NCBI GenBank assembly: GCA_016210045.1
Contig: JACQUX010000041.1
Location: forward strand, 72,789 to 136,788
From: Deltaproteobacteria bacterium
GTDB lineage: Bacteria; UBA10199; GCA-002796325; JACPFF01
Direction of reading: 5' to 3'
Length of the DNA: 64,000 nucleotides
Positions 10,002 through 43,490 of this stretch are shown one piece after another; position 1 is the stretch's first letter, and each line of letters begins with the position of its first letter. The notes under the pieces were generated by a model, which made no database searches, was not told the DNA's origin, and worked only from the letters and a program-made list of their open reading frames with translations. The translations under genes were made by a program, and so were the position numbers.

Positions 10002-10766
10002 ATGACGCCCGAGTTCACGACACAACTCTTCTGGCTTTGCCCCGTTGTCTTCGTGGCGGGATTCATCGACGCGATCGCCGGCGGGGGCGGGCTGCTCACC
10101 GTGCCGGCGTATTTGTTGGCCGGTCTGCCGCCGGTCTCGCTGCTGGGGACCAATAAGTTCGTTTCCACGCTCGGAACACTCATCTCGACGGGGAAATATA
10201 TGTGGAGCGGACGCATGCACTGGCCGGCGGCGCTGATCGGTCTGCCCGCGACATTAATCGGCGCAATGTACGGCGCCCACACCGTGACGCATCTCGATCC
10301 AGCCATCGTCCGCAGCGTCATCCTCGTGGCCTTACCAATCGCCGCGATCCTGACGTTGCTCCCCAAACCGCGCATGCTCAATACGCACGCGGCCGCGACC
10401 TGGACCACGCCGCGTCTGTGGTGGACCGTGATCCCTGTGGCAGTACTACTCGGATGGTACGACGGCTTCTTCGGCCCCGGCACCGGCACTATCCTCGTGC
10501 TGTTACTCTACAGCATCGTCCGCTTGCCGTTTTTGCAAGCGGCTGCGGTCGCGCGCTTCTTTAATTTAGTCTCCAATGCGGGGGCGCTCGTCACGTTCGT
10601 CTGGAACGATCAAGTCCTGTACCGCATCGGCCTACCGTTGGCCGCAGCCAGTATCGCCGGCCACTACTGCGGCAGCCATTTGGCGCTGCGGCGCGGCGAC
10701 GGCTTCGTGCGCGCGATGCTCGCGGTTTCGTGCAGTTTGGTCGTGGTGTATTTGCTGTGGCAATGA
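10002..10766 (+). CDS. TSUP-family (TauE/SafE) sulfite/anion exporter
   Basis: 8-TM protein with duplicated GGGG.LTVP / GPGTGT motifs typical of TauE/SafE. Confidence 0.8.
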   Translation: MTPEFTTQLFWLCPVVFVAGFIDAIAGGGGLLTVPAYLLAGLPPVSLLGTNKFVSTLGTLISTGKYMWSGRMHWPAALIGLPATLIGAMYGAHTVTHLDPAIVRSVILVALPIAAILTLLPKPRMLNTHAAATWTTPRLWWTVIPVAVLLGWYDGFFGPGTGTILVLLLYSIVRLPFLQAAAVARFFNLVSNAGALVTFVWNDQVLYRIGLPLAAASIAGHYCGSHLALRRGDGFVRAMLAVSCSLVVVYLLWQ

Positions 10767-10772
10767 AATGCT

Positions 10773-10792
10773 CCCCGCCCCAAGGGGCGGGG
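10773..10792. terminator. perfect GC hairpin (CCCCGCCCC-AA-GGGGCGGGG) 6 bp after the TSUP stop, between convergent genes
   Basis: 9-bp perfect stem read directly from the sequence. It lacks a T-tract, so it is more likely a bidirectional structural terminator or part of the adjacent repeat. Confidence 0.4.
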
Positions 10793-10799
10793 CTCCACG

Positions 10800-10905
10800 T
10801 CCCTCTCCCTTTGGGGAGAGGGTTGGGTGAGGGGGAGAATGGCATTGCGATGCTTCGCTTGCATCCTCCCCCTCACCCTAGCCCTCTCCCCAACAGGGAG
10901 AGGGG
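10800..10905. repeat. structured palindromic intergenic repeat, copy 1 (full length)
   Basis: Order of parts: CCCTCTCCC-TTT-GGGGAGAGGG hairpin, GTGAGGGGGAG, ~28-nt spacer, CTCCCCCTCAC, CCCTCTCCCC-AACA-GGGAGAGGGG hairpin. The same architecture recurs at 39187-39299, and partially at 24018-24069. Confidence 0.65.
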
Positions 10906-10923
10906 ACGCCGCAGCCCGTACTG

Positions 10924-11787
10924 TTACTCAATGCAGCAGGAATACTCTTCGCCGGCCACTTCGACAAAAACCGCTTCGTTCGCGGCGCAGATATGGAGAC
11001 ACGCGTGCAGTTCCGCGTCAACTTGATCGGTGGGCGCGAGCGACTTACTGCCGGTCGCTGACGGACTGAACGTCACGCCGACGGTGGCGATATTCCGCAT
11101 CTTGACGTCGGTCTGTTTGAAGCCGGGGAGACTCGCATACGTCTCGATGTGCCGCAGTTCGATCGTGCCGGCCCCGCTCAAGTTGGTCGTATCGAGATCG
11201 AACGATCCGCTATTGCCGATTCCGAAATGATAGATGTTGGTTGCGCCACCACTGACCGTGCCAGACTTGACGTACAGATCGACCGCCCCGCTGTTCGGCA
11301 TCTGGGCCGGGTCCCAGGTGATCGCCACGCTGCTGCCGGACACGGCCGCTCCGGCTAACGGCGCGGTGATCGGCGCGACACTGCTCGTCAACACGCTCAC
11401 GGTCGTGACCTGTTGCGCGGAATCAGTATACGTCAGGTAGTAACGCCCCTCCGCCTTCGTCTTCGTCACACTGGCACTGTAGAATTTATCGAGTTCCAGA
11501 AAGGCATCGTACGACAGCGACACACTGGCCGACACGCCACTCGCGCCTTCCGATGCCGCTTGCAATGACTCGCCTTGCGTGAGCTCGATCGCGACATCGC
11601 TCTCCGGCGTCTTGATCGCGGCGTCCACGCCGACGGTGTCGGAATCGAGATACTCATCGATAAACGCGGCTAATCGCACATCCGCGGCCTGCGTGGATTT
11701 CAGTTCATCGCTCTGCACCGCTTGACACGCAGCGAGTAGGACAACGCTCAGCACACTAATCCAACGACACGTGCTCAAGTTGTTCAT
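10924..11787 (-). CDS. hypothetical lipoprotein
   Basis: Start taken at MNNLSTCRWISVLSVVLLAAC, a signal peptide plus LAAC lipobox. The body is Ser/Thr/Gly-rich and beta-rich. The Cys-rich C-terminal tail is …HACLHICAAN…YSCCIE. Confidence 0.5.
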   Translation of the reverse strand: MNNLSTCRWISVLSVVLLAACQAVQSDELKSTQAADVRLAAFIDEYLDSDTVGVDAAIKTPESDVAIELTQGESLQAASEGASGVSASVSLSYDAFLELDKFYSASVTKTKAEGRYYLTYTDSAQQVTTVSVLTSSVAPITAPLAGAAVSGSSVAITWDPAQMPNSGAVDLYVKSGTVSGGATNIYHFGIGNSGSFDLDTTNLSGAGTIELRHIETYASLPGFKQTDVKMRNIATVGVTFSPSATGSKSLAPTDQVDAELHACLHICAANEAVFVEVAGEEYSCCIE

Positions 11788-21482: not shown

Positions 21483-24008
<2,526 letters not shown>

Positions 24009-24017
24009 TCATCTGCT

Positions 24018-24069
24018 TCCCCTCTCCCCGATGGGGAGAGGGATCCGCCCCAGGCGGAGGGTGAGGGCC
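24018..24069. repeat. partial copy of the palindromic intergenic repeat (single hairpin + GGGTGAGGG core)
   Basis: CCCCTCTCCCC-GAT-GGGGAGAGGG followed by …GGAGGGTGAGGGCC, in the gyrB-recF spacer. Confidence 0.45.
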
Positions 24070-24109
24070 TAACATGCACCGCCCCACGAGTAAAGGATTC
24101 CCCGCGTTT

Positions 24110-25180
24110 TCATCCGAATACCGCGCCTCCGCAAACACGCATCATGCGCGCATCCGCGGGATCATCCACATGCGTGGCGGTCACCAGAATCTGCGTTTCC
24201 AATTCCCGCAACGCCGCGAACAGCGCGGCTAATCGATCGGCATCTAACTCACTCCCGACGTCATCCAACAACAGGATCGGCGCAGTCCCCCGGCATTCCC
24301 GCGAAAGGTGGACTTCGGCTAATTTCAAGCTCAACACCACACTCCGATGTTGCCCCTGCGAACCGAAATGCTGCAGATCCCGAGCGGCCAACAACACGCG
24401 CACGTCGTCTCGATGCGGCCCGACCACCGTAATGCCACGCGCCCGCTCTTCCTCCGCCCGCCGTCGTAACTGATCGAAAAAATCATCCGCCTGATCCACT
24501 TGTGGTTCGTACTGCAGCGCAATTTCTCCATCGGCCGGCGCAAAGGCGCGATGCACTGACGGCAACCACGCGCGCAATCGATCCACCCATTCCCGCCTCG
24601 CCGCCACGACCCGGATCCCCAATTCAACCAATTGCACATCCCACGGCGCCAGCTGTGCCTGCAGCGACGCGGCGGCCATTCCCACGGCCTGCTTCAACAC
24701 GCGATTACGATGCAGCAACACTCGCTGCCACTGCCGGCGCAACGCGCGAAACGCCGGATCCATCCCTTCGATCAATGTGTCCAAATAGTCTCGCCGCGCG
24801 GCCGGCGGTCCCTTGAACAACCACGTCTCCTCCGGCGCAAACAGGATCACATGCGGCCACGCCAGGTCCGTCCCACGGACTCGTTTTTCATTGCGCAACA
24901 GGGTGCGCGCCGACAATTGCAGCTCCACGGCCAGCCAATCCCGCAGTCCGTCGCGATCGCTCTCCGCCCCGACCTTTGCTTGTGCCGCGCTATGGCGGAT
25001 CAAATCCGCCCGCTCGCCGGTCCGAAACGAATGCCCGCGCCCCACCAAATAGACCGCTTCAAGCAAATTGGTCTTTCCTTGCGCGTTGGCGCCGACAAAA
25101 TACGTCACGCCGGCGTTGAGCACGAATTCGACGCACGTATAATTGCGAAAATCACGGAGCGTGAGGCGGGTGAAAATCAC
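24110..25180 (-). CDS. recF: DNA replication and repair protein RecF
   Basis: Walker A GANAQGKTNLLEA and the SMC-like signature; overlaps the dnaN stop. Confidence 0.9.
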   Translation of the reverse strand: MIFTRLTLRDFRNYTCVEFVLNAGVTYFVGANAQGKTNLLEAVYLVGRGHSFRTGERADLIRHSAAQAKVGAESDRDGLRDWLAVELQLSARTLLRNEKRVRGTDLAWPHVILFAPEETWLFKGPPAARRDYLDTLIEGMDPAFRALRRQWQRVLLHRNRVLKQAVGMAAASLQAQLAPWDVQLVELGIRVVAARREWVDRLRAWLPSVHRAFAPADGEIALQYEPQVDQADDFFDQLRRRAEEERARGITVVGPHRDDVRVLLAARDLQHFGSQGQHRSVVLSLKLAEVHLSRECRGTAPILLLDDVGSELDADRLAALFAALRELETQILVTATHVDDPADARMMRVCGGAVFG

Positions 25181-26301
25181 GACAGACGCATTGGCATGAT
25201 GACCGACAAGAAGTCGCGATCGAATTCAGACCGAATCACACACGGGGCCAACTCCCCCTTGAGCTCCAGCACGAGTTGTTCGTCGGTCACGACATTCAGC
25301 ACATCTTGAAAATAGCGCGCATTGAACCCGACTTCGAACGTCTCCCCCTTATACCCAACCTGGAGTTCCTCATACGCCTCGCCTAAATCGGGATTCTGCG
25401 CCGAGATATCCAGATGGCCCGGTGAAAAGCGGAACTTCACACCGCGAATCCGTTCGCTCGTCACTAGCTGCACCCGCCGTAACGCCGCGCCGAATTCGTC
25501 GCGCGGCACCGTGACCAACCATTTATGATCTTTTGGAATCACTTGGCTATACGGCGGAAACTGCCCGTCGATCAGGCGGATCAACAGCGAGACATTATCG
25601 CGCTCGACCGCGATATATTTTTCATCCAACCGCAAGATAAAATCTCCGCTCGCGCCTTCGAGCAAGCGCCGCCATTCCAAAATGCCTTTGCGCGGCACGA
25701 TCACGCCGGCCGGCAACTTCCACTTTCCCGCCACCAACCGATCGGCATACGATAAACGATGTCCATCCGTGGCCGCCACACGCAACCGCGCCGCCCCTTT
25801 CGCACCGGCATCCGCCACTTGCTCCATGAAGAGCCCATTTAAGTTGTACCGGGTCTCGTCGGTCGACATCGCATAGACCGTTTTTTCGATCATCTCCAAC
25901 ATGGCCGACGCGGCCATGGAGACCTTCTCCGCGCTCGGCGTCTGCGGCAACGCCGGATATTCGTCGGCTGCGAGCCCGACGATCTTAAACTGTGATTTTC
26001 CCGCCTTCACTTCCACGCGATGATTCTCGCCGACTTTCAGATGCACGCGATCATCGGGCAGCGACTTCACGATATCGTACAACGCGCGGGCTCCTACCGT
26101 AACTTTTCCCGCGACTTTGGTCTCCACCGGTTGCGCGACCGTGACCCCGACTTCCAGATCCGTCGCCGTCAGCGTCAGCAATTTCCCTTCAGCCGCTAAA
26201 CAGCAATTGGCCAAAATCGGCATCGTGGCCTTGCGGTCCACGACCGTTTGGGTCCAGCTTAAGCTTTTGAGTAGATCACTTTTAGTGCTGTGGAATTCCA
26301 T
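25177..26301 (-). CDS. dnaN: DNA polymerase III beta sliding clamp
   Basis: Three-domain beta-clamp sequence (…LTLTATDLEV…, …RLIDGQFPPYSQVIP…). 374 aa. Confidence 0.9.
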   Translation of the reverse strand: MEFHSTKSDLLKSLSWTQTVVDRKATMPILANCCLAAEGKLLTLTATDLEVGVTVAQPVETKVAGKVTVGARALYDIVKSLPDDRVHLKVGENHRVEVKAGKSQFKIVGLAADEYPALPQTPSAEKVSMAASAMLEMIEKTVYAMSTDETRYNLNGLFMEQVADAGAKGAARLRVAATDGHRLSYADRLVAGKWKLPAGVIVPRKGILEWRRLLEGASGDFILRLDEKYIAVERDNVSLLIRLIDGQFPPYSQVIPKDHKWLVTVPRDEFGAALRRVQLVTSERIRGVKFRFSPGHLDISAQNPDLGEAYEELQVGYKGETFEVGFNARYFQDVLNVVTDEQLVLELKGELAPCVIRSEFDRDFLSVIMPMRLS

Positions 26302-26574
26302 GAGTCCCTCACCGCGAAATAGCCTTCTAATAAGAATTTATATATATAAAAATAGTAGTAGTAGTAGCACCTGTGGAAATGTGGGTAACGCTGTTAACTC
26401 CCGGACGGCGCTACGTAATCGCATGTGGACCCACTGGGAACAACCGGCGACACTCATCCACAGCCGAACATCGCGCGGGACTCTAACGTTGCCCGCCAAG
26501 CGTTGTCAACACGACAATCCCGGACTGATCCACAGTTTGCTGGGGATAAAAAACAGCGCAGTACTTCATCGCGT
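26302..26574. promoter_or_regulatory. candidate oriC (dnaN-dnaA intergenic)
   Basis: The lowest-GC stretch in the window is TAATAAGAATTTATATATATAAAAA at 26329-26352, a candidate DNA-unwinding element, followed by a (TAG)5 repeat. DnaA-box-like 9-mers, each 1-2 mismatches from TTATCCACA, lie in either orientation:
- TGTGGAAAT at 26373-26381.
- CATGTGGAC at 26422-26430.
- TCATCCACA at 26454-26462.
- TGATCCACA at 26527-26535.
- TGGGGATAA at 26541-26549. Confidence 0.5.
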
Positions 26575-27951
26575 TTAATGGACCAGACTTTTTTCGAGAA
26601 ATTCGACTTCATCGCGCAACCGCCCGCTCTCTTGAATTGCGGCGTCGATCTTGCGGCAAGCGTGCATGACCGTCGTGTGATCTTTGCCGCCGAATTTCCG
26701 CCCGATCTCGGGGAAGGAACTTTTGGGAATGTGTTTTTTGCAGAGATACATCGCGATTTGCCGCGGCACCGCGAGATGTTTCATGCGGCGCGGCGATTTC
26801 ATATCGGAGAGTTTGATTTGGTAATAATCGGCGACCATTTTTTGCACCGCTTCAATGGAGCATGGCTGATGGTGATCCTTCACGATGTCTTTCAACACCT
26901 CTTTGGCGAATTCGACCGTGATCGGCACGTTGTGGAGCGCGGCGTACGCGGAGAGCCGGATCAGCGAACCCTCCAGTTCCCGCACGTTGGAGCGGAATTG
27001 TTGCGAGAGATAAATGAAGACGTCGTTTTCTAAGCGGATCCGACTCGTCTCCGCCTTCTTTTGCAAGATTGCGATCCGAGTTTCCAGATCCGGCGGTTGA
27101 ATATCCGCAATCAGCCCCCATTCGAACCGGGACCGCAGTCGGTCATCCAGACCGTCGACATCTTTCGGAAACCGATCGCTTGTGACGACAATTTGTTTCT
27201 GCGCGTAATACAGCACGTTGAACGTGTGGAAAAATTCGTCCTGCGTTCGTTCTTTGCCGGCAATGAATTGGATGTCGTCCATTAACAACACATCGCAGCC
27301 GTCCCGATATTTTTTTCGCAGCTCGGCTGTTTTGTCGAACCGGATGGCGTTGATCACTTCGTTCATGAAGCGTTCCGAGCTGACGTACAGAATACGCAGG
27401 TGGGGAAACCGATCTTGCAGTTGAATGCCGATCGCATTCAGTAAGTGCGTCTTCCCGAGTCCCACGCCGCCATAAATGAATAGCGGATTGTAATGACCGC
27501 CCGGGAGATCGGCGACCGCTTTACACGCGGCCGTCGCAAACTGATTATTCGTGCCGATCACGAAACGGTCAAAGTCGTATTTGGGATTCAGCGGATCGCC
27601 GAGCGGCGCCGCGACGACCGACGTGACCAATGGGCGGCGGGCCGCGTCATTCGCCAGTTGCGGGACCGGTTGCTCCGCCGGAACGTCTTCGTCGTCCGAT
27701 TCCGCTGCGCCATCCGCGCGAATTTCGATTTGCAGTTGCCACGGGGCCCCGCCGATCCGGCCGGCCTCTTCCACAATGGTGGTCCCGTAGTACTCCCGCA
27801 GCCAGTCACGTGTGAAGACGTTCGGCACCGAGAGCTTCAGCACGCCATCTTCCGAGGCAGCACACCGCACTCCCTGAAACCAATAGTTGTAGTGAAAGTC
27901 ACTGATTTTCGATCGTATTTTGTGGAGTACTGACTCCCACAATTCCGGCAT
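26575..27951 (-). CDS. dnaA: chromosomal replication initiator protein DnaA
   Basis: The AAA+ domain has Walker A GGVGLGKTHL and Walker B; the C-terminal DNA-binding domain includes …KSPRRMKHLAVPRQIAMYLCKKH…. The start is placed at MPELWESVL, which gives a conventional N-terminus. Confidence 0.95.
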   Translation of the reverse strand: MPELWESVLHKIRSKISDFHYNYWFQGVRCAASEDGVLKLSVPNVFTRDWLREYYGTTIVEEAGRIGGAPWQLQIEIRADGAAESDDEDVPAEQPVPQLANDAARRPLVTSVVAAPLGDPLNPKYDFDRFVIGTNNQFATAACKAVADLPGGHYNPLFIYGGVGLGKTHLLNAIGIQLQDRFPHLRILYVSSERFMNEVINAIRFDKTAELRKKYRDGCDVLLMDDIQFIAGKERTQDEFFHTFNVLYYAQKQIVVTSDRFPKDVDGLDDRLRSRFEWGLIADIQPPDLETRIAILQKKAETSRIRLENDVFIYLSQQFRSNVRELEGSLIRLSAYAALHNVPITVEFAKEVLKDIVKDHHQPCSIEAVQKMVADYYQIKLSDMKSPRRMKHLAVPRQIAMYLCKKHIPKSSFPEIGRKFGGKDHTTVMHACRKIDAAIQESGRLRDEVEFLEKSLVH

Positions 27952-27971
27952 GGTCAACCCCGTCCACATAC

Positions 27972-27993
27972 CTATCCACAGGCTGTGGATGAC
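27972..27993. promoter_or_regulatory. inverted pair of DnaA boxes immediately upstream of dnaA start (autoregulatory site candidate)
   Basis: Read directly from the sequence: CTATCCACA, then GGC, then TGTGGATGA (the reverse complement of TCATCCACA). Confidence 0.5.
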
Positions 27994-28328
27994 TCCAAAA
28001 GCCAACGTATCGCTACCAAAGAGCGCCTAGTTCTTCTTTTTACAATCAGTGGAAACGCTGCCGAAGCGAAACGACTGAACGCGTTACAAACTTTACATCG
28101 GACATTGCTTGCGGTGAGTTTGCGCATGGCAAGAGCAACTTTCCTCTCGCCCTGTGCAAATCGTCGCCGCACCGCCGCTGTTAGGAACGCGATCTGGTCG
28201 CCGCGCATTTCGAGTGCTGCCACTGTTTGTCAAAGAAGAGTTGTGCACATACTCTTCGCCGGAATTTTTTGGCAATATTTTTTTTCCCGACGGCGCAACT
28301 CCTTGAGTCTCTTGTCAAAAAAAATCGC

Positions 28329-28882: not shown

Positions 28883-29145
28883 ACCAGTTTTTTTTATGGG
28901 TGGTGCGGGGCTATCAGCTCGCCATCAGTCCGCTATGTCGGCTGCTCGGCGCGCAATGCCGTTTTTATCCGAGTTGCAGCCAGTATGCCTGCGACGCGCT
29001 CCGACAGCTGCCGTGGGCCACGGCACTGCGCTTCATCGGGTGGCGACTGTTGCGCTGCCATCCCTGGTGCGAAGGAGGCATTGATCTTGTCCCCGCGCGC
29101 CGAATATGCAAAAGCGTCTCTACCGAGGTGAGCAATGAAATCTGA
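28879..29145 (+). CDS. yidD: membrane protein insertion efficiency factor YidD
   Basis: MNQFFLWVVRGYQLAISPLCR…CRFYPSCSQYA is the YidD signature. The start overlaps the rnpA stop and the end overlaps the yidC start. Confidence 0.85.
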   Translation: MNQFFLWVVRGYQLAISPLCRLLGAQCRFYPSCSQYACDALRQLPWATALRFIGWRLLRCHPWCEGGIDLVPARRICKSVSTEVSNEI

Positions 29146-30790
29146 ATCGCGACTCTTATTGGCCACGGCCCTCAGTATGGCGGTCTTTTCCGGATGGTTC
29201 TTGCTCTTTCCTCCGCAATCGCCTCCTGCCACGCCCGCTGCAACCGACGCGAGCGCGCCCGCCAATCCAGCCGTCGATGCTGCGGGCAATGCCGTTGTCC
29301 CGACAACACCAGCAGCGGTCTCGACCATTAACGATCCGCAGGCCACGCTGTCCGCGGAGACGGTCACGATGCAGACTGGCGTTGCGGAAATCACGCTCAC
29401 CAACGATGGCGCTGTCCCCTCGCGTTGGGCGTTGCAGCAATATCAGCAAGGGAAACAAGATGAAGCGACGTCGGTAGACCTCGTCACCGCCCCCACGGCG
29501 CCGCCTCTTGGTGTGGAATTAGTCGGTCTCGACGGCCTGCTTCCGCCGCAAGCGCGCTATGCCGTGGAACGCCTCGATGCCCAGAACGTCCGCTTCCGCT
29601 GGCGTTCCGAACAGCTCGAGGTCGTCAAGACGTACCACTTCCAACCCGGTGTCTACTCATTGGGACTGGATGTGGAACTGATCAATCACGGTACGGCGCC
29701 GCTGCAAGGCCGACTCGGAGTCCGCTGGATGGCCGCGAACTCTGATCAACAAAAACCGAGCGGATTACTCGCGTTCATCAAACCGCCGACCGATCATTGG
29801 CAGCCGCTTTATTGGAAGGCCGGCTCCGTCACCCGCCTCACCGACCCGAAAGACTTAGCCGCCGGCGTCAGCGACGACGGCGCCATCGGGTGGGCCGGCG
29901 TCGAAAGCCGCTATTTCCTCGCCGCGATTGTCCCGCATGCCACCACGACCCAAACCCATTTCCAGGGCACCGCTGCTGCCCCGCTGCTCGGCGTCTCGAT
30001 CGCGACCACCCCATTTGCGATTCCCGCCGGCACGAGCACGCGGCAGAATTTCACCATTTATGTCGGCCCGAAGGACCTGAAGGCACTGAAGGTCGTCGGC
30101 AATGGCCTCGACGCCGCAATCGACTACGGATGGTTCGGCTTTGCCGCCGTCCCGATCCTCTATCTCCTGAAGTTTTTCTACTCGATCATCCATAACTATG
30201 GCGTGGCCATCATTCTCCTTACGCTCTTCATCAAGGCGCTGCTCCATCCGATCACTAAGGCCTCATTGGCCTCGATGCGGCGGATGCAACTCTTGCAACC
30301 GCAACTGAAAGCCATTCAAGAGAAGTACAAAGGAGACCGTGAACGTTTGAACGCGGAAATGATGCAACTCTTCCGCAGCAACAAGGTCAACCCGATGGCC
30401 GGCTGTCTCCCCATGCTTGCCCAAATCCCGATCTACATCGCCCTTTATAAAGTGCTCTGGAACGCCGTAGAACTCTATCGCGCGCCGTTCGTCTGGTTTT
30501 ATCGCGACCTCTCCGCCCCGGACCCCTATTTTATTTCCCCCGCGCTGCTCGCCGTTGGATTCTATCTCCAGCAAAAATTGACCCCAAACCCCAGCGGCGA
30601 CAAGGCCCAGCAGAAAATGATGCAAATGATGACCTTCCTCTTCGCCGGCTTCATGCTGTTCCTCCCCAGCGGCCTAGTCATCTACATCCTCGTCAACACC
30701 GGCTTCAGCATCCTCCAACAATGGCTAATGAATCGCGGCCTAGGCTTCCGCGACCTACTCCGCGGGAATCTGCGGCCGAAGGCGGCATGA
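29135..30790 (+). CDS. yidC: membrane protein insertase YidC
   Basis: N-terminal TM segment, a large periplasmic domain, then the conserved C-terminal 5-TM core (…HNYGVAIILLTLFIKALLHPIT…). 551 aa. Confidence 0.9.
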   Translation: MKSESRLLLATALSMAVFSGWFLLFPPQSPPATPAATDASAPANPAVDAAGNAVVPTTPAAVSTINDPQATLSAETVTMQTGVAEITLTNDGAVPSRWALQQYQQGKQDEATSVDLVTAPTAPPLGVELVGLDGLLPPQARYAVERLDAQNVRFRWRSEQLEVVKTYHFQPGVYSLGLDVELINHGTAPLQGRLGVRWMAANSDQQKPSGLLAFIKPPTDHWQPLYWKAGSVTRLTDPKDLAAGVSDDGAIGWAGVESRYFLAAIVPHATTTQTHFQGTAAAPLLGVSIATTPFAIPAGTSTRQNFTIYVGPKDLKALKVVGNGLDAAIDYGWFGFAAVPILYLLKFFYSIIHNYGVAIILLTLFIKALLHPITKASLASMRRMQLLQPQLKAIQEKYKGDRERLNAEMMQLFRSNKVNPMAGCLPMLAQIPIYIALYKVLWNAVELYRAPFVWFYRDLSAPDPYFISPALLAVGFYLQQKLTPNPSGDKAQQKMMQMMTFLFAGFMLFLPSGLVIYILVNTGFSILQQWLMNRGLGFRDLLRGNLRPKAA

Positions 30791-30991
30791 CGTTTTGGGA
30801 CACGATTGAGTCCAACGGCAATTCAGTGACTTCCTATCGTCTGTATCTGGGGAATTGTTACTCCGTCTGCTGAATTGATTTCCAAGGGGGGAACCGCCGG
30901 GGCTTGCCGTGTTGGAGGTCCTCGTTTGATTTATTCCCGGCGCCGCCGTCGAGCGGAGTGCATCTGCCATGTGGCGGGATGGACGTGAGTT

Positions 30992-31456
30992 CTAACCGGA
31001 TTGGATGACCTCGCATTCCAATTGGTGGAGATCGGCTGTTGCTGTGGGTAATTCACAGGAAATTGTGATCCCTGCACAATCTTCGCGTTCCGAAGGACTG
31101 CCATCTTCTCCACACGACCCCGGAGCGATATCCATTGCGCTCCAGGTCCATTGTTGCCCCTTCCTTGTTCCGGGGTTGGTCACTTTATAGACGGACTTCG
31201 GGGTTGATCGCAATGCATGGAAGATCTTTGGATCACGCAGGAAAATCATCTCCACCTCCGTATTCATCGGGGCTGATCGGCGGAGTTCGTCTTCGCGTTT
31301 TTGCAGACGGGTAACACACTCGGCATGTTCCGGCTTGATCGTCACTTCTTGTGAGGACCCCGGTTTGTACCAACCGCCATCGCCGTGAAAAAGGGTTGTC
31401 AATTCAGGAGAGGTAAATGGACGACCTGCCAACGCATAGGGCACATTTTTTATCAA
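30992..31456 (-). CDS. hypothetical protein in lower-GC pocket
   Basis: 154-aa ORF in an ~850-bp stretch whose GC is visibly below the surrounding genes. No recognisable motif. It is uncertain that this is a real coding region. Confidence 0.3.
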   Translation of the reverse strand: MIKNVPYALAGRPFTSPELTTLFHGDGGWYKPGSSQEVTIKPEHAECVTRLQKREDELRRSAPMNTEVEMIFLRDPKIFHALRSTPKSVYKVTNPGTRKGQQWTWSAMDIAPGSCGEDGSPSEREDCAGITISCELPTATADLHQLECEVIQSG

Positions 31457-31647
31457 TGCGCTCTTTCCGCGTTTTCCATTCGGCTTCGGTCATTCATTAC
31501 GTCCTTTGCGTGACAATATTTTGAGGTGCGCAACCGTATAGTTTTACGGGAGAAAGCTCAATCGGTGATTCCAAGATTCAACTTGTGAGTTAAGTCCCTA
31601 CTGATTGGTGTGAGGGATGGCCCGCAAAAAACCTCAGCCAGCAGAAT

Positions 31648-32706
31648 TTACTGCAACAACGTGGTTTGCACTGCGGTGGCGGGGGTGAAGATTTTTTGTT
31701 GGTAGGGTTTGGTAGTTGAGGAAGAAGTCGTCGTGTCGGTGCCGCGGGCGAAATAGAGCATCGCGGCGGTTGTGGCGTTGTTAAACCAGCGTTCGGAAAA
31801 GTTTTGGTAGGCCACACTTAAAACCAGGCCTTCGCCCGATTGGAACGGAACGCCGGCCGGATCGGCGTATTGCGGGAGTTCGGTCACTTGGTGTTGCGCA
31901 TTAATCACGGCCGCGGCTTTCCAGAACGGGGCTGCTTCGCTTTCTTTGGTCAACGCCACTTCCACGCCGAAATCTTGTAACAGCCCCTGCGCCGCCACCA
32001 AATGGCCGGCCGTCGGCACCGCGACGCGCGTTTGCTTCGTGACGTAGCCGCCCGGCTCTACGGCCAACGGCTGATGGCCACATGGATCGGTCTCGATCAG
32101 TAGTGGTTGTACATCTTGCATGACTTGTTTGGTGTCCATCGGTTCGCCGCGGACCGTGAAGCGGAAATAGACTTCAGAATAATCTTCATCGGTGGGATTC
32201 CGTAACCATACTGTGGTTTCGAGGCGATCAGTGGGGACGATCGCGTAGCCGTAGCCCGCCGGCAACGTGATTTTCTGATGTGCGGATGTTGTGGCCGCAA
32301 TCGGGAGCCCGGTGCGTTCGCCGGAGCAAAGGGGATTGGACTCGCCGTGATTCGCGACAATCGCGAGGTGCAGCAGAGATGCCGGCAACGCGTTGCCGTT
32401 CCGATCTTCGAGCTCCGGTTCAAATGCGGTCATCCACAACGGCTCTTCGATTGCAAACGCAATGCTGCCTGGTTGATCGGCGAGGCGTTCCGGAGCGGAT
32501 TGCGCGGGAAGCTTGAACGGACCGACGCGATACGTGTAACTGCGAAGGCCCGCACTGACTGGTATTGGCGACGTCGGGGTTGTTTCAATGGCGGGCGGGA
32601 GGCTGGCGGTCACTGGCTGCAGAGTTGGTGCATTCGCTCCTTGCGAACAGGCCACGAGCGAGATACCTACCCAGCCGATCAAGGAACTATGGAGAATTCG
32701 CTTCAC
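31648..32706 (-). CDS. hypothetical lipoprotein (352 aa)
   Basis: Signal peptide plus lipobox (ISLVAC), followed by a Pro/Thr-rich linker. Confidence 0.55.
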   Translation of the reverse strand: MKRILHSSLIGWVGISLVACSQGANAPTLQPVTASLPPAIETTPTSPIPVSAGLRSYTYRVGPFKLPAQSAPERLADQPGSIAFAIEEPLWMTAFEPELEDRNGNALPASLLHLAIVANHGESNPLCSGERTGLPIAATTSAHQKITLPAGYGYAIVPTDRLETTVWLRNPTDEDYSEVYFRFTVRGEPMDTKQVMQDVQPLLIETDPCGHQPLAVEPGGYVTKQTRVAVPTAGHLVAAQGLLQDFGVEVALTKESEAAPFWKAAAVINAQHQVTELPQYADPAGVPFQSGEGLVLSVAYQNFSERWFNNATTAAMLYFARGTDTTTSSSTTKPYQQKIFTPATAVQTTLLQ

Positions 32707-32867
32707 GGTTGCGCACCTTAACGGTAATTTTCATAAAGAAAATACGCAGTGCAGCGCAAATGCGTAACGCGGAGCGTTAGTGGGGCGAGTGGTGTGTAAC
32801 AATATGTTATTATTGTGTATTACTGAGTGGTTGAATTAGCGATATTCGGGCCGCGCCAACATTAAAT

Positions 32868-34289
32868 ATGCATCACACCGCGATCCCCTATCTGAAGGAC
32901 ACCATTGTCGCCGTTGCCACCCCGTCCGGAGTTGGCGCTATCGGCATTATTCGACTGAGTGGAGAAGGTGCGCTTCAGATCCTCCGCACGCTGTGGATGA
33001 ATTCGGGTCAAACTGTTGATAATTTTGAATCCCATCGAATTTACATGGGAAATGTGATCGATTTCTCCACAGGGTCGCTGCTGGATCAAGTCCTGGCGCT
33101 CTGGTTTCAGTCGCCGCGTTCCTACACCGGAGAGGATGTGGTCGAAATCCACGCCCATGGCAATCCGCTGATCCTCGAACAAATTGTAGCCAGTTGCGTT
33201 GCCGCTGGGGCGCGGTTGGCAGAGCCTGGTGAATTTACCCGTCGGGCCTACTTGAATGGACGGATCGATTTGACGCAGGCGGAGGCCGTGGCCGACGTGA
33301 TCGCCGCTTCGAGTGCCGAGAGTGTCCGCCATGCCCAAGAGCAACTCAGTGGGCGACTGTCTCGGGTCTTGGGGAAGATTGCGTCAAATGTACTGGAGCT
33401 GCGCGCGCAAGTAGAAGCGAGTCTGGATTTTCCGGAAGAGGATCTTGAACTGTTGCGGCAGCAACAAATCGCGGAGCGCGTGACGGCGCTCGCTGGCGAG
33501 TTGGAGCAATTAGCCGCCACTTACCATGAGGGCCGTCTGTATCGCGAAGGAGCGCGTGTGGTGTTAGTTGGCCCGACGAATGCGGGAAAATCATCCCTCC
33601 TTAACGCGTTATTGGGCGAGACACGTGCGTTAGTGCACGCCACTGCCGGCACGACGCGCGACAGTTTGGAAGAGCCGGTGGTGTGGGAGGGCATTCCGAT
33701 TCGTTTGACCGATACGGCGGGCCTGCGTCCGTTGCCGGCAGCGGACACGGCAGGGGGCCACGAACAGATCGAGGCGTTAGGCATGCTCCGAACTCGTGCG
33801 TTGTTGGAACAGGCCGAACTCCGACTGTTGGTCTTAGATGGCAGTGCGCCGCTGACCGACGATGTTCGGGAGCTTGCTGCACAGCTTGGCACGGAGCGCT
33901 TGCTGGTGTGGTGTAATAAAAGTGATTTGCCGACGCAGCTGACGGCAGAAGCGTTAGCGGCGCTCTTTCCGCACCGAGTGCTTGACGGCTCCGCGCTGAC
34001 GGGCGATGGGCTGGCGACGTTACAAGCGGCCGTGACGCAGGAGCTCCGCGGCAGCACGGCGGGTGAGGCCCATGGGGTCTGGCTGACCACGCGACGGCAT
34101 AAAATTGCGGTTGACCGAGCGCTCGCATCTCTCTACGAAGCCAAAACCACGCTGGTCAGCGGGCGGTCCACGGAATTGATTGCCGAACATCTCCGGCTGG
34201 CCGCCGAGCAAATGGACGCGATCGTTGGCCGTGGCTCGCAGGATGAACTGCTGGAAGCGATTTTCAGCCGTTTTTGTATCGGAAAATAA
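32868..34289 (+). CDS. mnmE: tRNA modification GTPase MnmE
   Basis: N-terminal THF-binding domain. The G-domain is [15 protein letters not shown]…DTAG…. The C-terminal CIGK tetrapeptide is present (…SRFCIGK). Confidence 0.9.
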
Positions 34290-34324
34290 TGGGTGTGCGT
34301 TTCGCACCAAGGAATGCGTGTCAG

Positions 34325-36193
34325 ATGGATGGACAGTACGACATCATCGTCGTGGGAGGTGGCCATGCCGGCTGTGAGGCCGTATTGGCGGCCGCACGGA
34401 TGGGGTGTTCGACGCTGCTGTTGACGCAGAATCTCGACACCATCGGACACATGAGCTGCAACCCGGCGATTGGCGGGCTGGCGAAGGGACACTTGGTGCG
34501 CGAGATCGACGCGCTCGGCGGAGAAATGGGGCGCAACGCCGATCACGCCGGGATCCAGTTTCGCTGTCTCAACCGCAGCAAAGGGCCTGCGGTCTGGGCC
34601 ACGCGCGCGCAATGCGATCGCTTCCATTACAAGGCTCGGATGAAATCGGTGCTCGAAGACACCGCGAACTTGCACATAAAGCAGGCGTCGGTCGAAGACT
34701 TGGTCATTGAATCCGGCCGAGTGTGTGGTGTGCAAACGCATTTCGGACAACGATATGCGGCGCGTGCGGTGATCTTGACGACCGGGACGTTTCTGAACGG
34801 ATTGTTGCATTACGGCGAACGAACCATTGATGGAGGTCGGGCCGGAGACGCCGTCGCGCGTGGCATTTCTAATACCTTACTACAGGCGGGTTTCCGCTTA
34901 GGCCGATTGAAGACCGGCACGGTCCCGCGCGTTGACGGGCGGACGATCGATTTTGGGAATTTGGAAATTCAACACAGTGATACGCCGTTGCCTGCGTTCT
35001 CATTTTTTTCCGACGACCATCCGCTGCCGCAACGGCCGTGTCATATCACGTATACGAACGAGCAGACGCACGACGTGATCCGCGCCAATCTGCATCGCTC
35101 GCCGATGTATTCCGGCCAAATTCAAGGGATCGGGCCGCGTTATTGTCCGTCGATTGAAGATAAAGTGGTGCGATTTGCCGACAAGACGCGGCACCAAATC
35201 TTTCTCGAGCCGGAAGGTCTGGAGACACGCGAAATTTATGTAAATGGGGTTTCCACGTCGCTTCCCATCGATGTGCAATTGGCGCTGCTTCGCACAGTGC
35301 CTGGCCTGGAGCGCGTGGAGATCATGCGCCCGGGGTACGCCGTGGAATACGATTTTATCGATCCGCAACAACTGCATCCGACGTTGGAAACAAAATTCGT
35401 GCACGGGCTGTTCCACGCGGGACAGATTAATGGAACCTCCGGCTATGAAGAAGCGGCCGCGCAAGGGCTGATCGCCGCCATCAACACGGTGCTGCAACTG
35501 CGAGGTGAAGCTTCGTTGGTGTTGGATCGCAGTCAAGCCTACTTGGCGGTCATGATCGATGACTTAGTGACCAAAGGGACCGAAGAGCCGTATCGGATGT
35601 TTACGTCGCGCGCCGAACATCGCTTGTTGTTGCGGGAAGGGAATGCCGATCGCCGACTCTGTGAGATCGGGCGACGCATCGGGCTACTCGGCGAGTCTGA
35701 GTATCAGCGGTATCGGCAGAAGGCCGTACAGATCGAACAGCTATTGGCAGTGTGCCAGGAAACCATGCTGTCGCCGCAGCCGAGCGTGAACGATCAATTG
35801 GCAAATTTCGGCAGTGTACCGATAAAAAAGTCGACCCGTTTGGCGGATCTGTTGCGCCGAGACGATTGTCGACTGTGCGAACTTCTCCGCGCGTTCACGG
35901 CGATCGATCCGGCCGCGTTTTCTGAAATCGCGTTGGCTGAGGCCGAAACAGAGCTGCGCTATGCGGGATATGTGGAATTGCAGGATGCGGCCGTGCGTCG
36001 TTTAAAAGAAGTAGAAATGGTGACGATCCCCGCCGATTTTTCCTATGCCGATATTCCCGGTCTCTCGACTGAGATTCATCAAAAATTGACGCGCATTCAG
36101 CCCCGAACCTTGGGGCAAGCGGCGCGCATTTCCGGCATGACGCCGGCCGCACTGTCGATCTTGTTGGTCTATTTAAAAGCGCGCGCCGCTTGA
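34325..36193 (+). CDS. mnmG: tRNA uridine 5-carboxymethylaminomethyl modification enzyme MnmG
   Basis: FAD-binding N-terminus ([22 protein letters not shown]) and a 623-aa GidA-family body. The start is placed at MDGQYD. Confidence 0.9.
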
Positions 36194-36207: not shown

Positions 36208-37461
36208 TTACTGCAATCCCACCCACAGCGCCGTGCAAGTCAAATTGACTAACGCCAGCGGGAGCATCACGCGCCAGCCGAGACGCATCAGTTGGTCGTA
36301 GCGGAAGCGCGGCAGCGTCCAACGGATCTGGATGAAGAACCAACAGCAGAACGTCATTTTGGCCAACACCACACCCACTTGCAGCGCGGCGACCAAGACT
36401 GATGGCCACGGCGCGTTCCAAGACCAATTTGCAGGAAAGAGAAAGAATCCAATGAGTGCGACGGCCCCCAGCCCGATCGAGGGGATGCCGAAGACGACGA
36501 CTTCGAAGTCGCGCAAATCGCCGTAGCGTCCACGTCGGAAGCGACTACAGAGATAGGTGCCGAAGAGCACGGCGCAGAGACCGAGGGGGAGCAATAACCA
36601 GCGGAGCGTCAATGTGGGATGCAGCCGGACCCATTGCCAATCGAGTCCCGGCAGATGCCAGCCGCCGAAGAACAGCGTGGCGAGGAGTGCCGAGGCGACG
36701 GCGATATGGGCATATTCGGCCATGAAGAAGAGCGCGAATTTCATGCTACTGTATTCGGTATGGAAACCGGCGACGAGTTCCGATTCGCCTTCGGGCAAGT
36801 CGAATGGATTGCGGTTGGTTTCCGCAAACAGGGCGGTCAGAAAGAGGAGGAACGCCACTGGTTGGTTTACGGCGAACCAATGATGCAATGCTCCCGCCTG
36901 CATGGCGACGATCTCCGGAATGCGCGCCGTCCCTGCGGCCAGCAGCACACTGACCAGCGCCAAACCCATCGCCAATTCGTAACTGATCATTTGCGCCGAA
37001 GAACGCATGCCGCCGAGCAGCGAATAGTTATTATAGGAAGACCACCCCGCCAACATGACGCCGTAGACGCCAATTGAACCGACGGCCAAGATGTACAACA
37101 GTCCGACGTTTAAGTCCGCGACCTGCAGCCGCAACGTGTAGTCACCCAATTGCAACGGTTCGCCGAATGGGACCACGCCGATCGTGACACTGGCCACAAA
37201 GATTGCGATGAGTGGGGCGAGGCAGAAAAAAAATCGATTCGCGCGTGCAGGCAGGATGTCTTCTTTGGTCAGGAGTTTGATGACGTCGGCGATGTTGTGC
37301 AGCATGCCGCCCAGACGGATTCCGAGGATAGCCGCGCGATTCGGGCCGCGCCGATCTTGGATATAGGCGGAGCCTTTCCGCTCGAACCAGATCAAGAGAG
37401 GAATAAAGGTCAAGACGACGGAGACGATGAAAATCGGTTTAATAATTTCGACCCAGAGCAT
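36208..37461 (-). CDS. nuoH: NADH-quinone oxidoreductase subunit H
   Basis: 8-TM ND1 homologue (…RRGPNRAAILGIRLGGMLHNIADVIKLLTKED…). The start is placed at MLWVEIIKPIF. Confidence 0.9.
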   Translation of the reverse strand: MLWVEIIKPIFIVSVVLTFIPLLIWFERKGSAYIQDRRGPNRAAILGIRLGGMLHNIADVIKLLTKEDILPARANRFFFCLAPLIAIFVASVTIGVVPFGEPLQLGDYTLRLQVADLNVGLLYILAVGSIGVYGVMLAGWSSYNNYSLLGGMRSSAQMISYELAMGLALVSVLLAAGTARIPEIVAMQAGALHHWFAVNQPVAFLLFLTALFAETNRNPFDLPEGESELVAGFHTEYSSMKFALFFMAEYAHIAVASALLATLFFGGWHLPGLDWQWVRLHPTLTLRWLLLPLGLCAVLFGTYLCSRFRRGRYGDLRDFEVVVFGIPSIGLGAVALIGFFLFPANWSWNAPWPSVLVAALQVGVVLAKMTFCCWFFIQIRWTLPRFRYDQLMRLGWRVMLPLALVNLTCTALWVGLQ

Positions 37462-37484
37462 ACTAAGACTCCTGACGTCCGCAC

Positions 37485-39164: not shown

Positions 39165-39186
39165 GCAATTAACTCACTTCCATAGT

Positions 39187-39299
39187 CTCCCTCTCCCGTT
39201 GGGGAGAGGGACGGGGTGAGGGGGAGAATCATGCGTCTGACGACTCCCCCTCACTCCGTCCGCCTGCGGCGAACTTCCCTCTCCCCAACGGGAGAGGGA
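39187..39299. repeat. structured palindromic intergenic repeat, copy 2 (full length) in nuoG-nuoF spacer
   Basis: TCCCTCTCCC-GTT-GGGGAGAGGG, GGTGAGGGGGAG, 18-nt spacer, CTCCCCCTCAC, then …CCCTCTCCCC-AAC-GGGAGAGGGA. The layout is co-linear with copy 1. Confidence 0.65.
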
Positions 39300-39315
39300 G
39301 GTCAAGGAACAAAAA

Positions 39316-40596: not shown

Positions 40597-40675
40597 ACTA
40601 TTGTGTACCAGAGGATCCTTCCCCGCCGGAGGTTGCGCCTCAGGATGACGATGCGGCAGAAAATCTGCCGCATCG

Positions 40676-41152
40676 TCACTTCAATGCATCCAATAATTTG
40701 TCGACCTGCTCCGGCGTAAGATTTTCGTAATAGTCGCGACCGTTCACTTGCATCATCGGAGCGGTGCCGCACGATCCAAGGCACTCCACTTCCGATAACT
40801 GAAACCGTCCGTCCGGCGTTTGTCCGCCGACGCGGACCCCCAATTTTCCTTCCAGATATTTTGTCAGCTGCTTTGCGCCACGGAGCCAGCAACTGAGCGT
40901 GCGGCATACTTGCAAATGGTGCCGCGCACACGGCCGCCGTTCGTACATCGTGTAGAACGTAACGACTTCGTACACCGCCGCCGGTGTGATATCCAACACC
41001 TGCGCGACGGCTTCCATGGCCTCCGCGCTGACCCAACCCTCTTGCGCCTGGACGATCCATAACACCGGCAACAACGCCGCGCGTCGTGTGGGATAACGAG
41101 CACAGAGTTGTTCGATTTGGTCGCGTTGGGCGGGCGTAAACTGAAAGGCCAT
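40676..41152 (-). CDS. nuoE: NADH-quinone oxidoreductase subunit E
   Basis: 2Fe-2S thioredoxin-like fold with cysteines at CRTLSC…CLGSCGTAP. The start is placed at MAFQFT. Confidence 0.85.
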   Translation of the reverse strand: MAFQFTPAQRDQIEQLCARYPTRRAALLPVLWIVQAQEGWVSAEAMEAVAQVLDITPAAVYEVVTFYTMYERRPCARHHLQVCRTLSCWLRGAKQLTKYLEGKLGVRVGGQTPDGRFQLSEVECLGSCGTAPMMQVNGRDYYENLTPEQVDKLLDALK

Positions 41153-41262
41153 GCGCGGCTCTTTACGGGAGTTGGCGGGAAGAATCAAGTCGGCGCATCA
41201 TTATTTCCACGACCAAATCGTGATTCCGATCAGTCGTTGAGGGGCGCCCGAGTCACCCGCCG

Positions 41263-42938: not shown

Positions 42939-42949
42939 GTTGCTCTCAG

Positions 42950-43480: not shown

Positions 43481-43490
43481 ATCGTTCCAG

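Follow-up and report, generated by a model that had tools for sequence, protein, structure and literature searches.

What are the palindromic repeats that lie in short intergenic spacers of the window, the 64-kb stretch of Deltaproteobacteria DNA analysed here? A first-pass annotation had proposed a dispersed family of structured, REP/MITE-like repeats with two full copies and one partial copy, and the repeats are indeed present as it described. We found that they comprise five repeat units at three sites: two inverted pairs, at 10801-10904 (copy 1) and 39189-39298 (copy 2), and one single unit at 24020-24067 (copy 3). Each unit follows the plan CCCTCTCCC - loop 1 - GGGAGAGGG - loop 2 - GGGTGAGGG, that is, a pyrimidine arm, a purine arm, and a third block. 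The hairpin portion, CCCTCTCCC-N3-5-GGGAGAGGG, occurs five times in the window against 0.00 expected from 100 shuffles; GGTGAGGGGGAG, exact or with one mismatch, is confined to the two full copies, and a generic search for triplex motifs with stems of at least 8, run over the 64 kb, returned no unit beyond the five. The gene contexts were as previously read. Copy 1 is flanked by the convergent genes for TauE (+) and a 315-aa protein (-), the latter being one of nine window ORFs without a Pfam match (40 ORFs scanned); copy 2 falls between nuoF (stop at 39316) and nuoG (start at 39164), and copy 3 between recF (stop at 24110) and gyrB (start at 23972). Every site is thus intergenic: copy 1 separates convergent gene ends, and the other two copies are internal to operons.

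The five-part layout assigned earlier to both full copies is correct, and it results from two inverted units that differ in their second loops. In copy 1, unit 1a (10801-10833, + strand) consists of a pyrimidine arm (10801-10809), loop 1 TTTG, a purine arm (10814-10822), loop 2 TT, and the third block GGGTGAGGG (10825-10833), directly followed by GGAG (10834-10837). A spacer (10838-10865) forming an imperfect palindrome centred on TGCT separates it from its inverted partner, unit 1b (10870-10904, - strand), which has CTA as loop 2 and GGAG on its own 3' side (CTCC on the + strand, 10866-10869). In copy 2, unit 2a (39189-39222, + strand) has ACG as loop 2 and is followed by GGAG, spacer, and CTCC (39223-39247); unit 2b (39248-39298, - strand) has its hairpin at 39277-39298 in + strand coordinates, a 20-nt mini-hairpin with a GCA triloop (AAGTTCGCCGCAGGCGGACG) as loop 2, and the third block GAGTGAGGG. 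The whole nuoF-nuoG spacer (39165-39315, - strand) is 151 nt long and reads as 16 nt, then pair 2, then 24 nt. Copy 3 (+ strand) had been taken for a half-copy at 24018-24069. The repeat is there, but it runs to 24067 and carries its own third block: the hairpin (24020-24042) is followed by a 16-nt mini-hairpin as loop 2 (ATCCGCCCCAGGCGGA) and by a GGGTGAGGG block (24059-24067) that had not been linked to the box of the full copies. Its G-rich strand is the template strand of recF-gyrB.

Judged by their sequence, the window repeats are members of a known family, the BoxC / PIT / TM_ECO intrastrand triplex motif (Holder et al. 2015, PMC4666352). According to the same paper (PMC4666352), BoxC came to light in E. 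coli during the 1990s as a palindromic repeat; the paper also cites a 1999 survey by Bachellier of short palindromic repeats in enterobacteria. The published pattern, CCCTCNCCC N3-6 GGGNGAGGG N3 GGGNGAGGG (PMC4666352), is matched exactly by two of the five units (39189-39222 on the + strand and 10870-10904 on the - strand), and the other three depart from it in the length of loop 2 only (2, 16, and 20 nt). Copy 1 aligns over its full length with E. coli BoxC pairs, at a coverage of at least 80% in 3983 genomes and a median of 29 places per genome, and it can be aligned column by column with the hrpB-mrcB pair of MG1655; E. coli has the same five-part pair as the window copies. The E. coli elements are always intergenic, show no strand bias relative to genes, and include five inverted pairs, each of which joins two loop types (A+B) (PMC4666352). 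The window units share with them (Hoyne et al. 2000; PMC4666352) the three-block sequence almost base for base, the intergenic location, and the inverted pairs with two loop-2 types. They differ in their host, a Deltaproteobacteria MAG, and in a third block that is extended by GGAG, mirrored in the partner. The motif was found in at least 15 phylum-level groups. The view of a dispersed family was borne out by these further copies in other genomes, and a short-read contig breaks off inside copy 1, a sign of a repeat in the source sample; the 5.9 kb to the left of the window held no further copy.

On single-stranded DNA, the pyrimidine and purine arms would form a hairpin, and the third block would return along the purine arm in antiparallel orientation and occupy its major groove, with triads G*G-C, A*A-T, and T*A-T that correspond to a class II purine-motif intrastrand triplex. 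The GTGAGGGGGAG box of the first-pass annotation is the third strand of this hairpin-plus-third-strand unit. In the antiparallel register, the 9-nt blocks show no triad mismatch in four units (e.g., nine of nine triads are valid in unit 1a, despite its loop 2 of 2 nt vs 3 in the published pattern) and a single mismatch, due to GAGTGAGGG, in 39248-39298. The single-strand triplex is very stable in vitro according to CD, thermal melting, and NMR, with a Tm of 70-82 C (PMC4666352). It has never been seen in cells, because in vivo DMS footprinting found the triplex guanines unprotected, and the double-stranded form is an ordinary duplex (PMC4666352). We infer that the fold would form transiently in vivo, e.g., at replication or repair.

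Variation among copies bears on whether this geometry matters. We found 55 G<->A changes in the purine arm across 120 genome loci, and for 38 of them the third block has a triad-valid base at the antiparallel partner position, vs three in the parallel register. In the co-change matrix, the antiparallel diagonal holds 49 of 110 co-changes, against 1/9 expected. An independent metagenome scan for the variant hairpin CCTTCTCCC/GGGAGAAGG returned the third blocks GGATGAGGG (107), GGAAGAGGG (6), and GGTTGAGGG (2), the canonical GGGTGAGGG once, and a parallel-compensated block never, so that the third block beside the variant hairpin was compensated in 115 of 116 cases. These counts take in related copies, which are not independent events, and six different position pairs covary. 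Since the third block changes at its antiparallel partner when the hairpin varies, selection on triplex geometry is suggested, and the covariation across many phyla shows that triad compatibility, and with it the three-stranded geometry, has been conserved by evolution. For the fold itself, triad covariation lends the triplex indirect support. As far as we searched, cross-phyla covariation pointing to a conserved three-stranded geometry goes beyond published work and bears on whether the triplex matters in cells.

The second loop is either short (2-7 nt) or a mini-hairpin in its own right: of 156 long loops, 128 fold by themselves (132 distinct sequences), and the third block stays beside the hairpin because a long loop 2 folds in this way. 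The inserts favour 3-nt GAA or GCA loops with a C-G closing pair, which we take to be a stable type of DNA mini-hairpin and not GNRA tetraloops. In the window, loop 2 is a mini-hairpin of 16-20 nt in two of the five units and measures 2 nt in another, whereas loop 2 of the published TM_ECO pattern is 3 nt and the published searches were limited to 1-6 or 0-10 nt; the mini-hairpin variant falls outside these limits and, as far as we searched, has not been published. Both window pairs are heterotypic, joining TT with CTA and ACG with the 20-nt hairpin, and at other loci none of 43 pairs had identical second loops.

Comparison with a relative, whose nuoF and gyrB share 82-83% DNA identity with those of the window, revealed that the elements are missing from both of its orthologous sites that were checked. 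In the relative, the nuoF TAG abuts the nuoG ATG and the whole 151-nt spacer is missing, so that pair 2 parts two genes that are otherwise directly adjacent; the recF-gyrB spacer is about 71 nt longer in the window. This is an insertion/deletion polymorphism at two sites between close relatives. Compared with the relative's empty sites, nuoF-nuoG and recF-gyrB showed neither a target-site duplication nor a defined element boundary. The elements would be insertions at the DNA level that propagate selfishly or are unstable, not regulators of particular genes; close relatives gain or lose them, and they land in any short spacer, also inside operons, although the way in which they spread is an inferred part of this explanation. 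The MITE-like character proposed earlier is partly retained: as in MITEs, two inverted ends (each pair consists of a unit and its inverted copy, corresponding to terminal inverted repeats) surround a short spacer, and the elements are non-coding, intergenic, and missing from the relative. They differ from MITEs in the lack of a target-site duplication at the two sites, in two ends that are never identical in loop 2, and in that the sole candidate for an autonomous partner, the DUF559 cassettes described below, encodes a PD-(D/E)XK nuclease and not a known transposase. Taken as one explanation, membership in the BoxC family, an antiparallel triplex fold on the single strand, and selfish or unstable insertion at the DNA level are, in our judgement, probably correct.

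How the elements are propagated may be connected with a nuclease. It is quite possible, if short of probable, that the gene-less inverted pairs are non-autonomous partners or derivatives (MITE-like or REPIN-like) of cassettes in which the gene for a DUF559 PD-(D/E)XK nuclease lies between inverted triplex-motif units that DUF559 would recognise or mobilise; this extends the explanation above more than it strictly rivals it. Clustering of ORFs within 2.5 kb of the motif at 360 loci yielded one recurrent small family, whose median distance to a unit is 32 nt; it is DUF559 (Pfam E-values 1e-33 to 1e-39). A unit lies within 150 nt of 14 of 16 DUF559 domains, vs 32% by random placement in the same loci (P = 8e-6), and 13 of the 16 have units on both sides. 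In the reverse direction, 16 plasmid DUF559 genes were chosen by tblastn regardless of the motif, and 11-12 of them have triad-valid units within 400 nt, with lineage-specific stems in Deinococcus, Neisseria, Sinorhizobium, Photobacterium, and Synechocystis. On two Deinococcus plasmids, the sole two units in 50 kb adjoin the DUF559 gene at 3-33 nt, and in S. meliloti the gene-less and gene-flanking units have subtypes in common.

The single DUF559 gene of E. coli, ycjD, adjoins fabI (envM), and the spacer between the two genes contains the BoxC unit TMECO no. 9, in front of which lies a partial duplicate of the 3' end of ycjD. BoxC was reportedly first described at this very ycjD-fabI (envM) locus, by Bergler et al. 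in 1992. E. coli S88, which is without ycjD, has an efflux operon at the fabI locus and lacks both ycjD and BoxC there. Beside the other BoxC copies of E. coli no ycjD remnants were found, and each genome has ycjD DNA in a single place. The DUF559 profile detects PDB 3HRL and has a weak match (E = 1e-3) to 3R3P, which is named 'Mobile intron protein'; a published classification groups VSR, DUF559, and DUF2726 with PDB 3r3p and lists a homing endonuclease of a group I intron among the same proteins. The structure detected is the nuclease domain of I-Bth0305I (PDB 3R3P), a free-standing homing endonuclease. Like the genes of such enzymes, DUF559 genes behave as small insertions between or inside host genes; unlike them, they are bracketed by inverted triplex-motif units, have no intron or intein context, and encode a putative nuclease.

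Several observations weigh against a nuclease cassette as the source of the gene-less elements. No DUF559 gene is present in the window or in the relative's 43 kb, and ycjD is missing from 2048 of 5426 E. coli genomes, nearly all of which keep about 29 BoxC places, so the gene is not needed for persistence. Cassettes that carry the gene tend to have like ends and gene-less pairs never do, from which it follows that the pairs are not simple internal deletions of DUF559 cassettes, a derivation that conflicts with their strict heterotypy. The orientation of the units to the gene also varies by lineage (inward in Proteobacteria, outward in Deinococcus), and the association is equally compatible with DUF559 genes homing into units that were already there. 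With these points in mind, we tentatively suggest that BoxC-type units could be the terminal repeats of very widespread, hitherto unrecognised small selfish cassettes encoding a DUF559 (Vsr-like PD-(D/E)XK) nuclease, each lineage with its own cognate triplex-forming stem, that the gene-less pairs could be non-autonomous partners, and that the nuclease might recognise the folded single-stranded triplex. The associated enzyme proposed in the first-pass annotation may hold with DUF559 in place of RAYT, by analogy with other genomes. In the literature on DUF559, ycjD, and COG2852, we found no paper tying them to BoxC/PIT/triplex repeats, which is not proof of absence. As far as we searched, the close DUF559 association is new and makes the long-open BoxC/PIT question directly testable; if true, the cassettes would provide an origin and a mechanism for BoxC/PIT elements, open since their description in the 1990s, and a function for DUF559 proteins such as YcjD.

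That the elements work mainly as RNA (as terminators, mRNA stabilisers, or processing sites, e.g., through a nuoF-nuoG hairpin) is improbable. RNA folding, which had been proposed as a check, gave one very stable long hairpin for each full copy (-97 to -117 kcal/mol, z about -10 to -11; as DNA, -49 to -53 kcal/mol). Copy 1 lies between convergent genes, and copy 2 is certainly transcribed in the nuo operon, with 24 nt left between its end and the ATG of nuoG; as a side effect, pair 2 should give the nuo mRNA a duplex of about 45 bp. Yet no T-run follows the hairpins of any copy, a terminator/promoter scan of the copy 1 region (10600-11100) returned nothing at the element, which speaks against the suggestion that the copies mark termination sites. 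The loop-2 inserts are of the DNA mini-hairpin type rather than GNRA tetraloops, the relative's nuo operon does without the element, and the E. coli elements, which are also free of strand bias, have neither promoter nor terminator activity as far as the work of Hoyne and Maher is cited in PMC4666352. Rfam at gathering thresholds gave no match in the whole window, and at E <= 10 over copy 2 it gave sub-threshold microRNA-hairpin look-alikes only and no nuoG motif; a search for tRNA and tmRNA found none. In the pairs, the long hairpin is a rival to the local triplex, a point that counts against the triplex explanation.

A G-quadruplex of four G3 tracts (GGG-AGA-GGG-NN-GGG-TGA-GGG) is a very unlikely substitute for the triplex as the functional fold. 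Each unit does have four G-tracts of at least three with short loops, the pattern with loops of up to 7 is present in the short-loop units, and for analogous archaeal repeats G4 and triplex compete in vitro, with similar C-flanked PQS repeats in E. coli (PMC8044849). A G4, however, has no need of the complementary pyrimidine arm, which is conserved; positions 4 and 6, loop residues in a G4, covary (A->G in the purine arm is accompanied by the same change in the third block); and variants with GG-only tracts (GGGAGAAGG/GGATGAGGG) are abundant. The archaeal counterparts, the PQS/triplex repeats of Methanomicrobiaceae, form a hairpin, an antiparallel triplex, or a G4 in vitro (PMC8044849). Both they and the window repeats are intergenic and place a four-tract G-rich segment beside a complementary C-rich tract, but the C-rich tract is 3' of the G tracts there and 5' in the window, and the sequence family and hosts are different.

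An identity as REP/BIME-type elements serviced by a RAYT (IS200-like Y1 transposase) is hardly credible and was rejected, as there is no GTAG/CGTC tag, no RAYT was found in the window ORFs and motif-bearing loci scanned, and no terminator T-run is present. What stands of the REP/MITE-like assignment is that the repeats are dispersed, palindromic, and intergenic: like BIMEs and REPINs, they are short, GC-rich, multi-copy, often in inverted pairs, and present or absent between strains, and their heterotypic pairing resembles the Y/Z REP types in BIMEs. In other genomes, however, GTAG preceded none and CGTC four of 188 units, and in the window CGTC occurs by chance at copy 1 only. REPs have no counterpart of the conserved third block that obeys triplex rules, and they are to our knowledge species-specific, whereas the near-identical core of the window family is common to many phyla. 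The expected RAYT was not encountered either: a Pfam scan of 40 window ORFs gave no match to transposase, Y1, or RAYT families, and 2.95 Mb of motif-bearing loci contained 15 DUF559 genes but no RayT homologue (best tblastn E with E. coli RayT, 0.78).

For annotation, the window copies are ordinary members of the BoxC family, to be masked or labelled as BoxC/triplex-motif and not as REPs, terminators, or small ORFs. A separate perfect GC hairpin, CCCCGCCCC-AAG-GGGCGGGG (10772-10797, + strand), is located between the TauE stop and pair 1 and stands outside the repeat family.

We detected exactly five triplex-motif units in the 64 kb, and no others, with a generic finder that requires a stem of at least 8 and, besides the pyrimidine arm and the arm complementary to it, a third block compatible with triad formation. 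Four of them form two inverted pairs, copy 1 (10801-10833, + strand, and 10870-10904, - strand) and copy 2 (39189-39222, +, and 39248-39298, -); copy 3 is a single unit (24020-24067, +). The CCCTCTCCC-N3-5-GGGAGAGGG hairpin occurs five times in the window versus none in 100 shuffles, and a window search found the GGTGAGGGGGAG box and its complement, with at most one mismatch, confined to the two full copies. The contents of the three sites are as described in the first-pass annotation, and its claim of intergenic placement is true of all three: copy 1 is flanked by TauE (+) and a 315-aa ORF (-), copy 2 lies in the nuoF-nuoG spacer, and copy 3 lies in the recF-gyrB spacer. The full copies are long imperfect palindromes, each foldable as a single hairpin (RNA folding: -97 to -117 kcal/mol, z of about -10 to -11; DNA folding: -49 to -53 kcal/mol). 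A Logan short-read contig from the source sample, identical to the window up to 10828, stops inside copy 1, which points to its repeat nature because assemblies stop that way at repeats; a second contig spans pair 2. Directly after the TauE stop and just 5' of pair 1 is a perfect GC hairpin (CCCCGCCCC-AAG-GGGCGGGG, 10772-10797), which has no T-run and is outside the triplex-motif family.

The unit corresponds to the E. coli BoxC repeat, which is also the PIT element (Hoyne and Maher) and the TM_ECO triplex motif (Holder et al. 2015, PMC4666352). The published pattern, CCCTCNCCC N3-6 GGGNGAGGG N3 GGGNGAGGG (PMC4666352), is matched exactly by two of the five window units, and the other three deviate in loop 2 only. 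What had been annotated as a box is therefore the third strand that joins a hairpin to make up one unit, and two such units in inverted orientation make the five-part element. Copy 1 matches E. coli pairs across 93% of its length, aligns block for block with the hrpB-mrcB pair of MG1655, and has matches in 5408 of 5426 E. coli genomes (median 29 places). The finding is genuine and belongs to the known BoxC/PIT/triplex motif family; it is neither a REP nor an element of a new kind, and in that capacity its interest is modest. Holder et al. (PMC4666352) reported that in vitro the single strand folds into a purine-motif triplex of very high stability, that E. coli elements are always intergenic, that five of five pairs in E. 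coli K-12 combine two loop types, that element-bearing loci are unusually variable among strains, and that in vivo DMS footprinting did not detect triplex formation. As cited in that paper, the elements had shown neither promoter nor terminator activity in earlier tests.

Scanning a single genome from each species for the hairpin plus GTGAGGG gave at least 120 matching stretches. Judged by record titles, the matches listed come from at least 15 phylum-level groups, among them Alpha-, Beta-, and Gammaproteobacteria, Chloroflexota, Planctomycetota, Acidobacteriota, Verrucomicrobiota, Cyanobacteria, Myxococcota, Nitrospirota, Omnitrophota, and Elusimicrobiota, and many of them have the five-part pair layout.

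As the third block lies antiparallel to the purine arm, its position i should match arm position 10-i. Among 55 G<->A changes in perfectly paired hairpins of 120 genome loci, 38 had a triad-valid base at the antiparallel partner, whereas the parallel register accounts for only three of the 55. Across the 120 genome loci and 120 viral contigs, 49 of 110 co-changes fell on the antiparallel diagonal versus one ninth expected. Because copies are related, neither these counts nor those of the test below represent independent events; the stronger argument is that several distinct position pairs covary (1/9, 2/8, 4/6, 6/4, 7/3, and 9/1). In a direct test, metagenomes were scanned with the variant hairpin CCTTCTCCC/GGGAGAAGG alone as the query; 115 of the 116 hits with a recognisable third block had A or T at third-block position 3 (GGATGAGGG 107, GGAAGAGGG 6, GGTTGAGGG 2, canonical G 1), and none of the 116 had the parallel-register change. 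These patterns from other genomes suggest that the triplex geometry is conserved in evolution, which raises the value of the finding as a lead. A G-quadruplex is a possible structure in vitro, as discussed in the literature, but the triplex agrees better with the covariation. Positions 4/6 would be quadruplex loops, and their covariation would go unexplained. Watson-Crick pairing of the third block to the pyrimidine arm does not account for the covariation.

The length of loop 2 is bimodal: short loops have 2-7 nt, and the longer ones are inserts that form a hairpin themselves. Of the 156 long loops (132 different sequences), 128 fold independently, usually as T, a GC stem, a GAA or GCA triloop, and the returning stem. 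A hairpin here would bring the third block back beside the duplex, as the triplex model requires. The window units at 24020 and 39248 carry such a mini-hairpin, a variant that exceeds the loop limits of published BoxC/TM_ECO searches and, through its occurrence in other genomes, adds to the value as a lead. Both window pairs are heterotypic in loop 2, and none of 43 pairs had an identical loop 2 in both halves.

That the repeats act as RNA elements is an unlikely alternative. The nuo mRNA must nonetheless contain pair 2 as a long duplex, which may act locally, for instance through cleavage by RNase III or by removing the coupling of nuoF and nuoG that a relative shows (DNA identity of 82-83% in nuoF and gyrB). 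Against an RNA-level role, and against the suggestion of a termination site, T-runs are absent, copy 1 has no terminator-like site, and no Rfam family matched. The proposed REP element serviced by a RAYT is not borne out, as GTAG precedes 0 of 188 units and CGTC four of 188, 40 scanned window ORFs gave no Pfam match to a transposase family, and 2.95 Mb of motif-bearing DNA contained no RayT homologue.

The MAG is labelled Deltaproteobacteria bacterium, and the window represents the neighbourhood of its replication origin, with Pfam matches to dnaA-dnaN-recF-gyrB, yidC, mnmE, mnmG, rsmG, and parA (21483-28005, 29135-36193, and 51605-60772). All three repeat sites are within ~17 kb of dnaA; clustering of the motif near the origin was described by Holder et al. 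for E. coli K-12 only. After the origin genes is a + strand ORF run (54.7-60.8 kb), possibly ATP synthase. In the relative, the nuoF TAG is directly followed by the nuoG ATG, where the window has 151 extra bases, and the recF-gyrB spacer is 66 nt versus 137 nt in the window, a gain or loss at each site; neither comparison revealed a target-site duplication. Within the nuo gene region (window 36208-43900, -), NuoG is just 559 aa, and the relative has an additional 120-aa ORF, without Pfam match, between nuoD and nuoE.

When all ORFs lying up to 2.5 kb from a unit in 360 loci were clustered, one recurrent small family was conspicuous besides the phage structural genes of the viral set: DUF559 (PF04480), present in 16 loci, with a median distance of 32 nt to a unit. 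The usual cassette is a unit, ~45 nt, the DUF559 ORF, and an inverted unit, i.e., the five-part element of the window with a gene replacing the spacer; the window itself has no DUF559 gene by profile search. Of the 16 DUF559 domains identified by a profile search, 14 are no more than 150 nt from a unit (against 32% expected, P = 8e-6), and 13 have units on both sides. Conversely, when 16 plasmid DUF559 genes were picked by tblastn regardless of the motif, 11-12 had triad-valid units within 400 nt. Stem sequences on the plasmids are lineage-specific, yet the mirror relation is preserved in every case (e.g., CCTCCCCC/GGGGGAGG/GGAGGGGG in Deinococcus and CTCTCTCCC/GGGAGAGAG/GAGAGAGGG in Neisseria). 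In two Deinococcus plasmids, the only two units in the 50 kb around the gene flank DUF559 at 3-33 nt; in an S. meliloti density control, three of five units flank a DUF559 gene and the gene-less units are of the same subtypes. The DUF559 profile matches PDB 3HRL and, weakly (E = 1e-3), PDB 3R3P ('Mobile intron protein'); in a published classification, the group of 3r3p also contains VSR, DUF559, and DUF2726, and a group I intron homing endonuclease is listed among its members. Unit orientation relative to the gene varies among lineages, and cassette ends tend to be alike, whereas those of gene-less pairs never are. The units may be the termini of a mobile cassette, or a homing gene may use them as its preferred target, and the data fit either. 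Literature mentioning DUF559, ycjD, or COG2852 yielded no link to these repeats. This association, drawn from other genomes, is the foremost reason for the value as a lead.

The sole DUF559 gene of E. coli K-12, ycjD, adjoins fabI (envM), near which BoxC was reportedly first described by Bergler et al. in 1992. The ycjD-fabI spacer holds BoxC unit TMECO no. 9, the ycjD 3' end runs into CCCTCTCCC, and a partial duplicate of this 3' end precedes the neighbouring BoxC unit. The gene is accessory (3378 of 5426 complete genomes, always single copy), and the 38% of genomes without it retain BoxC copies. Strain S88 has an RND efflux operon beside fabI and lacks both ycjD and the adjacent BoxC unit.

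DUF559 genes with flanking units also lie within operons on plasmids of Sphingomonas (L375), Deinococcus psychrotolerans (L376/L388), and D. proteolyticus (L374/L385), inserted between pntAA and pntAB, between paaD and paaZ, and among hpa genes, the same behaviour as pair 2 of the window. In an uncultured betaproteobacterium MAG (L016, 1777-4452, -), a unit-DUF559-unit cassette lies in frame within metG, where it separates the catalytic body from the C-terminal tRNA-binding domain, and its repeat units are translated as PSPSGRGAGGEG / PTPLPEGEGS linker peptides. The motif occurs in many viral contigs and large plasmids, and this spread, together with that over many phyla, likewise raises the value as a lead on the basis of genomes other than this one. 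Holder et al. described the E. coli motif as lacking phage or plasmid association. Four IMG/VR contigs (L335, L343, L292, and L325) share phage-type structural gene families (portal, prohead protease) and carry three to four heterotypic pairs per ~10 kb; among these, the two long types of loop-2 hairpin recur consistently.
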